A DNA stretch of 64,000 bases from Takakia lepidozioides (GCA_030704615.1 CM060733.1:2790001-2854000), one strand, 5' to 3'. Positions 52,001-55,000 are shown, counted from the first letter of the stretch. Translations and numbers: made by a program. The notes: generated from the letters alone by a model not told the origin.

Positions 52001-55000
52001 GTAAGCCCTCAGGAACCGCCGTATACGTCGTCTCTCTCCTCCGGTGACAATGGGTCCAATGTCAGGCTCCCAATTGTCCTCCGTAACTACAACCTTAAGT
52101 CCAGTGGGCTTAGAGGTAGAGGACGCGTCCAGTGGTTGCTATGCTGCAACCTCTTGAGCAGTACTCCCTGCCTGCTCAGTCAGTCAATGACAAGGCCTCA
52201 TCCTGCCCCATCATCTCATCCTTGAGGACCTCCTCAACCCGAGAAGAATCCCCAACCTCATCCATCACAGCCGCCTTGGCTGCCAACTCCCTCTGAACCT
52301 CGAGCACCTCCCACGTGTGCCATGGATGCATGCACCCCGTGGTCCTCACGCTCGCCCCCACTCACTGCCTGTACCGTCTCGGTAGGCAGAGAGACCATTG
52401 GGAAGTGTACTCCGCACTCTGCGTTGCTCAGCCAGAGCCAAGCTGATAATCCAGGTCAAGCAATTGAGATCCATTGCTTGCCCCAACACTTGACGACGTG
52501 ATGCCTCAGAAAGAGACGACACGCCGTGGTACCAGTGGTAAAACCCATTGCCCGCTCACGCTCGTCAGCATTAGGCTCCACTAACTGCTGCAACTGAGCA
52601 TCCCACAGGAGGCCAGGTCCACTATCCCGGAAAGCATGCGATCCTGGGAAGCTGAGCAGTGTAGGTAATGCTGCTCGTGGTTGACCCACCTTGTTGACCA
52701 CTGCCAAAGGCGAACGGTCATCGTGTCTCACACGCTGAGACTGCCTCCCTGTGTCCAGAATGTTATCCACTGTGAGATGTGCTGGCCGCTGCACCCCATC
52801 AAATGCACGCTTGAGCAGTGCGGGTGGCATCAAGTTAGTCCACCATAGCCGTGGACGATGAGCCCGTGACCCCACTGTAGCTGCATCTAGCAACACTGCT
52901 GACCCAAGCCACGACCGGACTTGATGCACACTGGCCATCACCCTGGCCCGAGAATGCCCATCAGTGGCACATTCTCCAAGATGTATGCTGGAGATACAGC
53001 TTGATGAAGCTGCAAGTGGCGCAAAACCCGCACCATCTCCCAAAACAGACCCGACCTCGAGTCTCGCAATCCATTGCCATGCCCGGCTGATGAATGCCCT
53101 TGGCAGGGCCAACCTGCCACTACCAGATCAATGGAGCCAACCCGCTCCAAATCCTGCGCCCCCAGCAACGAAATGTCTGCTGGCAAGGCCTGCTGATATC
53201 CACGAATTGCAGACACCGACAACAACTCAGGGTACCGCTGCACCAACTGAGCAACATGGCGAAGTGAAACGCGTCGTGCAGTCTCATCCCTCTCCACATA
53301 CAGGTAACGCCGAACTCGTACACCTGCCTGTAACACAGCAGCCAATCCGGTGCTGATCCCGCCAAACAAGTCCAGAAGACAAATGCCTTCATCCGGAGAC
53401 TGCCACACAATAGGTGTGGTGTCCAATGGAGACAATTGAGGTGGTCCTGGTGCAATCCCCACACTCTCCTCCTCTCCTGACGGTACAAAAGCCTCCACCC
53501 AGGCTTGTTGCACCCGTCGATCAGCATCCCGCTGCAAATCCTTGCTCGTGCCCCACAATGGAGTCTGAGCAACCATGGTAGGCAACTCCGCCATACCATA
53601 CATGTCATCCTGCTCTCCGGAGGTGGTACATCCTCTGAATGAGCATTGCCCTCAAGCAACTCTCTAGGCCAACTCACTGCCGCTGTGAATGCTGCTAGTG
53701 TCGGCATCTTGCCTCGCTGGGCAACCGCAACTCCTCCTATGAACGTCACACGTCGGCCCTCCCCTGACTGCCATGCAGGCCTATAGGAAGCTGACTCCTC
53801 CCAAAAATCCAGGGTGAAGCCCATGGGGTACAACACTGCCCCACCAACCAGGACATCGTATGAGACTGCGTCTGTCACAATGGCCTTGGCTCGCATCACT
53901 GAGCCATCTGTAGGGTGATCCGGCCGTAGTCTGATAGCCAACTCACGCCGTGTCATGCCCCGAGCCTGCTCCGATCCTCCCAGAGACGTCTGTATCTGGA
54001 AAGGACAAGGCTCCATATCCGCCTCCGTGAGGCCCAAGCCTGCAATAGCAGCTCTGCCCAGCATCAATGGCTGAGCTCCCGAGTCCAACAAGACCCGCAG
54101 TGGCCGGTACCTCTTGCCTGCCGGTCCACTCAAACAGAAAATGCCATCCTGGTTGTCTAACATGACAACTCCAGGTGTCACCATGGCGCGCTCAATGGCT
54201 GGCCTAGCTGGCAGCTCCATCAACCTGGCAGCTGCAGCTTGCCATGGCGCCGCCGTGGCAGTCTTACCCTCAAATCCGAGGATCCCTCCGGCACTACACC
54301 TCCTACTATCTCCGCAGAAGATGAAGTAACCTCCCCACTCTCACAGAGTGTAGCTGCCAGCCTGAACACCTCAGCTGGTCTTACCCCCGGCGTCGCAATC
54401 ATGGTAGCCGAGAACAATGGAGCCTGGCACACAGATGTGGCCGCTCCTAGCAGCACACTAGCTGCCGTAGCCTTGGCAACACTAGGTAGTGGTGCTACCC
54501 GTGTAGCTCTCCCCAATGGCATAGTAACCTCCGCCTCGGTAACAGTCGGGCGAGAACTAGGTGCCATGGATGGCGTCGACACTGTCTCCGCCAATGTGAA
54601 TGACTGAGGAAGCCTAGCCTGACGGCTTGCCTCCCCACGCTGTGGATCCAACTCCACCTCTGCACCTCGTGGCTCAGGAACTCGTGCTGCTCCTCGAGTC
54701 ACGGCTGCAGCAGACTCCACCTGCACTAGTGGTAGTGCTGCTCCACACATGAATCCCATGCCTCCCATATCTCCTCCCTCAGGAGCAGGAGGTGGACCAT
54801 CCGGCCTTAGAGCCGGTACCACCTGAGCTGTAGCCATGGCAGCGAGCCTCTGCTCTAGCTGCTGAAGCCGGTTGGCCATGCCTTGGTCAACACCCTGACC
54901 TCCGCGTCCTTGGCCACGTTGAGCTTGCCCTTGGCCTCGTGGCTGGCCACCTCGTCCCCTCTGGGCTGCTCCACCTCGCCCCCGGCCACCATTGTTCCCT

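Follow-up and report, generated by a model that had tools for sequence, protein, structure and literature searches.

A Ty3/gypsy retrotransposon with a DNMT3-like methyltransferase domain upstream of a conserved in-frame stop codon

Architecture and genomic setting of the element

The window, i.e., the whole stretch of 64,000 nucleotides analysed here, contains on its minus strand a full-length Ty3/gypsy element of 12,057 bp (48055..60111) with TG...CA ends and a 4-bp target-site duplication (TSD), TGGT. Its assignment to Ty3/gypsy follows from the domain order Gag-protease-reverse transcriptase-RNase H-integrase (Gag-PR-RT-RH-INT), a DDE integrase, the TG...CA termini and the short TSD. Two complete terminal LTRs are absent, the ends instead being formed by split repeats in the arrangement A-coding-B-A-B, as for KnitGypsy-Dnmt3. 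A tyrosine-recombinase element of the DIRS/Ngaro type was considered and rejected on account of the rve integrase and the 4-bp TSDs.

Read in its own direction, the element begins with repeat A1 (60111-59794), within which lies a 16-nt complement to the primer-site-like sequence that follows it (candidate primer-binding site, 59778..59793). Thereafter come a leader with a tandem array of 10-, 51- and 102-bp periods (57025..58363, without assigned strand), the coding region, repeat B1 (48747-48559), a GC dinucleotide, repeat A2 (48243..48556) and finally repeat B2 (48055..48243). A G-rich tract resembling a polypurine tract (PPT; 48748..48762), which is kept in the relatives, directly precedes B1, and the B1/A2 junction forms the palindrome GACA-GC-TGTC (48553..48562, without strand), a candidate integrase attachment site.

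The first open reading frame (ORF1; 52139..56080, about 1,310 codons) encodes Gag, zinc knuckles, an aspartic protease and a DNMT3-like C5 methyltransferase domain (DNMT; 52410..53400). Gag is recognizable by a weak Pfam match (E 7e-4); the protease (53750..54230) was recognized by its DSG motif at 54085, the Pfam search of the window's own ORF yielding no protease match, and the equivalent region of relatives matches Asp_protease_2. ORF1 closes with an in-frame TAG (52141-52139) followed by CAACCA, which fits the CARYYA consensus, the whole (52133..52141) constituting a likely readthrough site. Beyond it, ORF2 (49005..52138) encodes RT (YIDD at 51438), RNase H, an H2C2 motif, the rve integrase and a C-terminal PHD finger. 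Both ORFs are frame-broken in the assembly, and the relatives P0004 and P0041 supply an unbroken Gag-PR-DNMT ORF. The first-pass annotation had described the methyltransferase as embedded in pol between protease and RT; its position between the two is confirmed, but there is no continuous pol, since the conserved stop separates DNMT from RT and makes ORF1 a Gag-PR-DNMT unit.

An internally deleted second copy of the same family occupies the plus strand at 3..3258, with the stop context at 207 and an open, in-frame linker upstream of it. Its 3' end (1823-3258) carries three B/A units in which 11-bp repeats are expanded, possibly through unequal recombination. The full-length element was inserted into or beside a CACTA-type Tnp2 transposase region (PF02992; 44099-47870). 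Elsewhere, the window holds several related LINE-type RT fragments (9660-10983, 14919-16942 and 25317-25585), an exon of a lycopene cyclase gene (27875-28792), two intronless PPR genes (33887-35860 and 37126-39129) and an assembly gap of 500 bases (N; 4012-4511). One of the PPR genes additionally contains E and DYW domains, as in the organelle RNA-editing type, and as we take such a gene to be of land-plant type, the host should be a land plant; the DNMT domain's placement in the tree described below indicates that it is likely a bryophyte.

In the window copy the DNMT domain is distributed over three frames, the breaks lying near 52955 and 52520. Other copies lack these two breaks, to which the first-pass annotation alluded only through the word "repaired". 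Over 1,497 aligned codons this copy displays 10 frame switches and 0 stops, as against 12.8 stops and 2.3 frame switches per 1,000 codons in the related loci (L001-L054). A1 and A2 differ by one substitution and six one-base indels, every one of the latter in homopolymer runs, and B1 and B2 by two indels and no substitution. Contigs both from the best-matching sample and from other studies show small indels relative to the window at these places, both DNMT breaks included; the best-matching sample is possibly the window's own source and is thus not independent. Given the absence of stops, the near-identical repeats and the contig indels, the window copy is likely recent, and its frame breaks are likely either long-read assembly errors or private to this copy, a choice that the contigs cannot make. 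The family appears to be very abundant in the host, as suggested by run X1, in which 91,703 of 2,790,647 contigs match 8.6 kb of the element, a depth that is not a copy count. The raw RNA run X14 gave 0 reads matching the window and run X13, presumed to be RNA, gave 17 contigs matching parts of it, neither figure bearing on expression.

Class, relationships and conservation of the methyltransferase domain

All seven motifs claimed in the first-pass annotation, which we presumptively number within the I-X series, were recovered in canonical, unpermuted order on the minus strand: motif I (LDLFGGISTG, 53375-53346), II (YVERD, 53300-53286), IV (DLVVAGWPCQG, 53129-53097), VI (ILENV, 52982-52968), VIII (AHRPRLWWTNL, 52863-52831), IX (ERERAMGF, 52563-52540) and X (GQAMD, from 52483). 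The catalytic cysteine is encoded by TGC at exactly the position given earlier (53105-53103). The domain was also said to be intronless, and indeed no intron-sized gap interrupts it; an intron-containing host gene was rejected. It is complete in that every motif is present and Pfam recovers PF00145 (E 2.6e-12), but not in the sense of a single intact frame. In an alignment of 230 domain rows, near-duplicates included, the catalytic cysteine occupies all 223 non-gap rows, the motif VI glutamate 229 of 230, and the two motif VIII arginines 222 of 228 and 222 of 226; the motif IV proline is replaced by glutamate in 92 of 223.

Multiple lines of comparison place the domain in the DNMT3 class as opposed to the DRM, MET1 or CMT classes. 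The DNMT3 words quoted in the earlier reading are those of DNMT3A itself and align with the motifs of the window. A profile built from 30 relatives scores DNMT3A at 101.6 bits and DNMT3B at 94.5, followed by DRM (70.7), HhaI (39.7) and DNMT2 (about 35). For the fold comparison an AlphaFold (AF2) model of an unbroken relative, P0002 (pLDDT 85), was used, which is 76-77% identical to the N-terminal half of the window domain. Its first Foldseek matches are DNMT3A/B, and a wide search ranks DNMT3B (Z 26.9, rmsd 2.8, 278 residues aligned) and DNMT3A (Z 26.0) ahead of the bacterial enzymes M.MpeI (Z 24.2, close to DNMT3) and HhaI (21.3), with ZMET2 (16.8), DNMT1 (16.7) and DRM2 (9.0, over only 133 residues) further behind; a PDB search with the C-terminal half of the domain alone found no match. 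The DNMT3 assignment is thus supported by sequence and by the model of this relative. DNMT3A/B, the closest in both profile and fold, are about 22-25% identical to the element domain, which differs from them in lacking PWWP and ADD domains and in being fused to Gag-protease. Descent from a host DNMT3 would be consistent with this similarity and with the published account of such elements (PMC5890265); a DIRS-type query seeking host DNMT3s retrieved only DIRS-type proteins among the best 120 of 665 matches.

The domain is by no means peculiar to this copy, as dozens of loci and named bryophyte proteins carry it. Relatives of up to 81% identity include named proteins of Marchantia, Sphagnum and Calypogeia, and the same family also accounts for 54 of the 69 metagenome loci; we term these loci peat-moss-like because their linker matches the Sphagnum protein P0056. 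Remoter relatives, from streptophyte algae and chlorophytes, belong to Mesostigma, Closterium, Haematococcus, Chromochloris and Cymbomonas, and 269 matches at E up to 1e-30 emerged when 50%-identity clusters were searched. In a DNMT tree of 55 hand-picked rows (LG+G4), which covers neither host DNMT3s nor K. nitens sequences, the Gypsy DNMTs group together (100/99), separately from the DIRS-type and phage enzymes, and the window domain falls within a bryophyte-type group (100/100). No relative bearing the name K. nitens was found; those of Mesostigma and Closterium lie in the Gypsy clade. A separate group (100/97), which includes named chlorophytes, has the DNMT between RNase H and integrase. 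This is the arrangement of most relatives (P0055, P0061, P0172, P0255, P0275 and others, as well as those of Haematococcus, Chromochloris and Cymbomonas). As these elements make up a clade of their own in both the RT and DNMT trees, either the domain changed place a single time or sister lineages captured it on two occasions. The two trees are congruent (29 rows, Spearman 0.76, permutation p 0.001) in a comparison that used 18 of the 33 rows with the RNase H-side arrangement, near-duplicates having been dropped.

Among the other loci, L063, L067 and L068 possess DNMT3-type domains that group with a Symbiodinium protein, and L063 combines RT and DNMT3 in one ORF with a recombinase-like ORF, matching SymbioDIRS-Dnmt3. 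The phage-type DNMTs L055 and L071 are placed next to the DIRS DNMT3s, a weakly supported position (93/72) in the tree, and L150 is a similar match at 36%.

The domain is under purifying selection, as judged from sequence divergence. Between the window and 51 loci, DNMT pN is 0.20 and pS 0.71, with a median Jukes-Cantor dN/dS of 0.12 as compared with 0.10 for RT, in comparisons that have dS near saturation and share one long branch, and are hence not independent; neutral evolution, raised earlier as a possibility, does not fit these values. Among the decayed loci themselves the ratio is 0.64 for DNMT and 0.47 for RT.

The indel-rich assembly of the window copy might invite the view that the arrangement reflects a single capture event involving a host gene, contaminating bacterial DNA or a chimeric assembly. 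We regard this as refuted by the recurrence of the same architecture in dozens of loci and in the named Marchantia, Sphagnum and Calypogeia proteins. Further, land-plant-type PPR-E-DYW and lycopene cyclase genes share the window, and non-eukaryotic matches are distant: a viral scan with P0002 found nothing, a profile scan retrieved only distant phage-type DNMTs, the best viral match has E 1e-18 with 34% identity over 203 residues, and the best prokaryote match, at 36%, sits on a 2-kb contig.

Reading-frame layout and terminal repeats

Translation of the linker between DNMT and RT revealed a stop at one place in all 15 loci tried, and it occupies one codon in 29 of the 30 related loci in which the start of RT is covered (17 TAG, 12 TAA). 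The six bases following it in these 29 are CAACCC in 27 and CAACCA and CAACCT in one each, such that CAACC is invariant. Both window copies have TAG CAACCA, at 52141 and in the second copy, the upstream linker of which is open and in phase; the full CARYYA motif is hence present in both, yet in only one of the 29 related loci. PR and DNMT share one frame in 42 of 47 loci, and DNMT and RT in 22 of 29. The Marchantia (P0004) and Calypogeia (P0016, P0012) proteins end 93-99 residues past motif X, and a sister clade (P0233-P0242, P0041, P0042) has stop-free Gag-PR-DNMT ORFs of 1,228-1,437 aa ending shortly past the DNMT. One sister lineage (P0077, P0215, P0274) is without the stop and has DNMT and RT in the same open frame. 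A stem 3' of the stop, which pairs in 92% of cells, is no better than in shuffled sequences (63/500), with folding z from -0.4 to -2.2. In tobacco mosaic virus (TMV), CARYYA after UAG is the readthrough signal, and a gag:pol ratio near 20:1 is kept (PMC2754532, PMC2194720).

The above layout points to readthrough of the conserved stop as the likely source of the RT-RH-INT-PHD product. It is less plausible, and in our estimate unlikely, that this product arises instead by splicing, reinitiation or an internal promoter, with DNMT still terminating ORF1. Reinitiation could draw on an ATG present three codons past the stop in most peat-moss-like loci, whereas the window family offers no Met within 85 codons after it; and splicing between protease and RT is a feature of Ogre elements, but neither process would need the reading frame to be maintained across the stop, as it is in both families. 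As for an internal promoter, a similar junction in Tca2 had promoter activity in reporter tests (PMC2194720, PMC2754532). CARYYA is not matched at the sixth base in 28 of 29 loci, yet stop-CAACC is invariant even though synonymous sites are near saturation. Whichever route applies, the gene layout indicates that DNMT would be produced together with Gag and in excess over RT. The stop thereby alters the argument about dosage, as synthesis of the enzyme would follow that of capsid and not that of RT.

The terminal repeats are equally unusual. An internal stretch of A can pair with the 16 nt that follow A1, a match for which none of 5,000 shuffles reached even 15 nt. In relatives, the best such match falls at the same position of A (165-167) in 7 of 11 loci, with fewer than 5% of shuffles equalling it in only two. 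Priming by the element's own sequence is thus likely, a mode known from Tf1-type elements. With the primer site after A1 and the PPT before B1, B plus A corresponds to a classical LTR, and the predicted linear cDNA is B-A-coding-B-A. However, insertions start at A and finish at B, on either side of a CA-NN-TG junction, and B precedes A at none of 18 visible 5' ends. At the 3' ends of related loci, B-A-B occurs in five (four insertions) and a single B in nine. TSDs in the seven loci with both ends visible are 4 bp, exact in five and with three of four bases matching in two. In both families, joining the predicted linear ends bluntly would reproduce the A2|B2 junction exactly.

The split repeats, the self-complementary primer site and the palindromic junction together suggest that the element integrates by way of an internal site, perhaps out of a circular form. 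Self-primed reverse transcription would yield B-A-coding-B-A, and integrase would use the internal B|A site; a two-LTR circle cut once would then give A-coding-B-A-B, while two cuts, or a one-LTR circle, would give A-coding-B. Caution is imposed by the missing A-B-A-coding-B form, which would be expected now and then from a two-LTR circle whose two sites are equal, and by simple B-by-B recombination. These same points favour a route without any circle, in which A-coding-B-A-B is regenerated by DIRS/Ngaro-like strand transfers on an RNA that includes the complete 3' B-A-B, and copies of the A-coding-B form result from B-by-B recombination, which the TSD would survive. This account is possible, if somewhat improbable: it does not readily explain why the primer site and PPT delimit B plus A as a classical LTR, why A2|B2 is a blunt join of linear ends in both families, or why single-B ends outnumber B-A-B ends although B is only 113 bp in those loci. 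In either case, an element with a DDE integrase would, judging by these ends, integrate by an unusual route, and LTR finders would likely miss ends of the A-coding-B-A-B form.

Possible function and comparison with known systems

These features allow a model to be proposed for the element. Gag-PR-DNMT would assemble the particle, and a minor readthrough product would supply RT and integrase-PHD. The fusion of the domain to Gag makes packaging of the DNMT plausible, and the protease may release it. The packaged enzyme, in capsid-level amounts, would then methylate cytosines of the element's own cDNA before integration, which the PHD likely guides; the benefit, at a guess, is that a new copy arrives already bearing the marks of host-like or of silent chromatin. 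What the analysis shows is the order of the domains, the class of the fold, the conservation of the catalytic residues, purifying selection, the stop and the anatomy of the repeats, to which the model adds readthrough, packaging, protease release and a cDNA substrate as postulated steps. We consider the model of a Gypsy-DNMT3 element whose DNMT ends ORF1 before a leaky stop to be somewhat favoured, and self-methylation of the cDNA to be about equally credible. A more ambitious synthesis appears doubtful: an old, green-lineage-wide Gypsy clade, high-copy in this host, that combines the leaky stop, an active DNMT3 in the particle, self-priming, cDNA methylation and junction integration partly from circles, so that copies arrive pre-methylated.

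Other roles for the domain have to be weighed against cDNA methylation. The element's PHD finger is most like those of CHD4, KDM5, PHF21A and ATXR5, which are readers of unmodified H3 tails. This resemblance could point to an active enzyme working on integrated chromatin (at its own locus, at competing elements or in host DNA) or on RNA instead of packaged cDNA, as could the substitutions between the two window copies, which show no CG bias (CG 8/107, CHG 16/116, CHH 43/534); such alternatives are listed in PMC5890265. Yet the PHD lies beyond the stop, on the integrase, while the Gag fusion places the methyltransferase where cDNA is made, and the location between RNase H and integrase in chlorophyte relatives is likewise a particle location, for which reasons we deem a chromatin or RNA target distinctly unlikely. 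Less probable again is retention of the domain for DNA binding or structure with catalysis dispensable. The frequent loss of the motif IV proline is compatible with it, but the near invariance of the catalytic cysteine, the glutamate and both arginines across the family is not what it would predict; and while KnitGypsy-Dnmt3 showed no activity in yeast, human DNMT3B failed too in the same assay (PMC5890265). Methylation of the element's own cDNA hence continues to be our preferred reading, and the presence of relatives in the model liverwort Marchantia makes it testable by genetics.

Retrotransposon DNMT3s have been described for dinoflagellates and one charophyte, with their role still open (PMC5890265). 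A 2019 opinion paper held transposon methylases to be absent from "land plants, such as tracheophytes" (PMC6338049), and the available parts of a 2026 preprint and of PMC12344493, citing PMC5890265, give "streptophytes" without naming bryophytes. Against the earlier statement of absence, the present element places a DNMT3 domain in a young, very abundant land-plant family. Additionally, bryophyte proteomes list such ORFs under the label of host "DNA methyltransferase" genes. The literature covered, which lay outside Repbase, most subscription journals, and Fig. 4c with the main supplement of PMC5890265 (the last two may show domain position, PHD or stop), contained no account of a bryophyte or chlorophyte Gypsy-DNMT3, of the stop or of the priming and junction anatomy. 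The kind of element is already known from KnitGypsy-Dnmt3, as far as PMC5890265 could be consulted, and the stop, chlorophyte spread and priming and junction anatomy were not found in that literature.

Several known systems share single features with the element. Murine leukemia virus (MuLV), Tca2, SIRE1 and TMV all have an in-frame stop within the coding region, with CARYYA as here in TMV, but their stops lie at gag/pol or pol/env boundaries in the accounts available (PMC2194720, PMC2754532), as opposed to after protease and DNMT. Gypsy-7a_cRei of Chlamydomonas is likewise a green-lineage Gypsy with a PHD finger in its polyprotein, a methyltransferase being unmentioned for it in the accessible part of PMC9940879. 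SymbioDIRS-Dnmt3 has a DNMT3-type domain in a retroelement polyprotein, and its domains methylate CG de novo in yeast (PMC5890265); it is, however, a DIRS element with a tyrosine recombinase, its DNMT shares the frame of RT, and it lies outside the green-plant Gypsy clade in our tree. The closest counterpart is KnitGypsy-Dnmt3 of Klebsormidium nitens, a Gypsy element with an intronless, unpermuted Dnmt3-related domain in Pol, DIRS-like A-coding-B-A-B repeats and purifying selection, for which the authors call the absence of methylation in yeast inconclusive (PMC5890265). The comparison is by description only, PHD, self-priming and junction anatomy going unmentioned in the available portion of that account. 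Unlike KnitGypsy-Dnmt3, the element described here resides in a land plant, and its domain is cut from RT by the conserved stop, where the authors place theirs in the Pol ORF of RT (PMC5890265). We accordingly set it apart as a variant of the KnitGypsy-Dnmt3 kind, because a stop intervenes between DNMT and RT domains that share the same phase.
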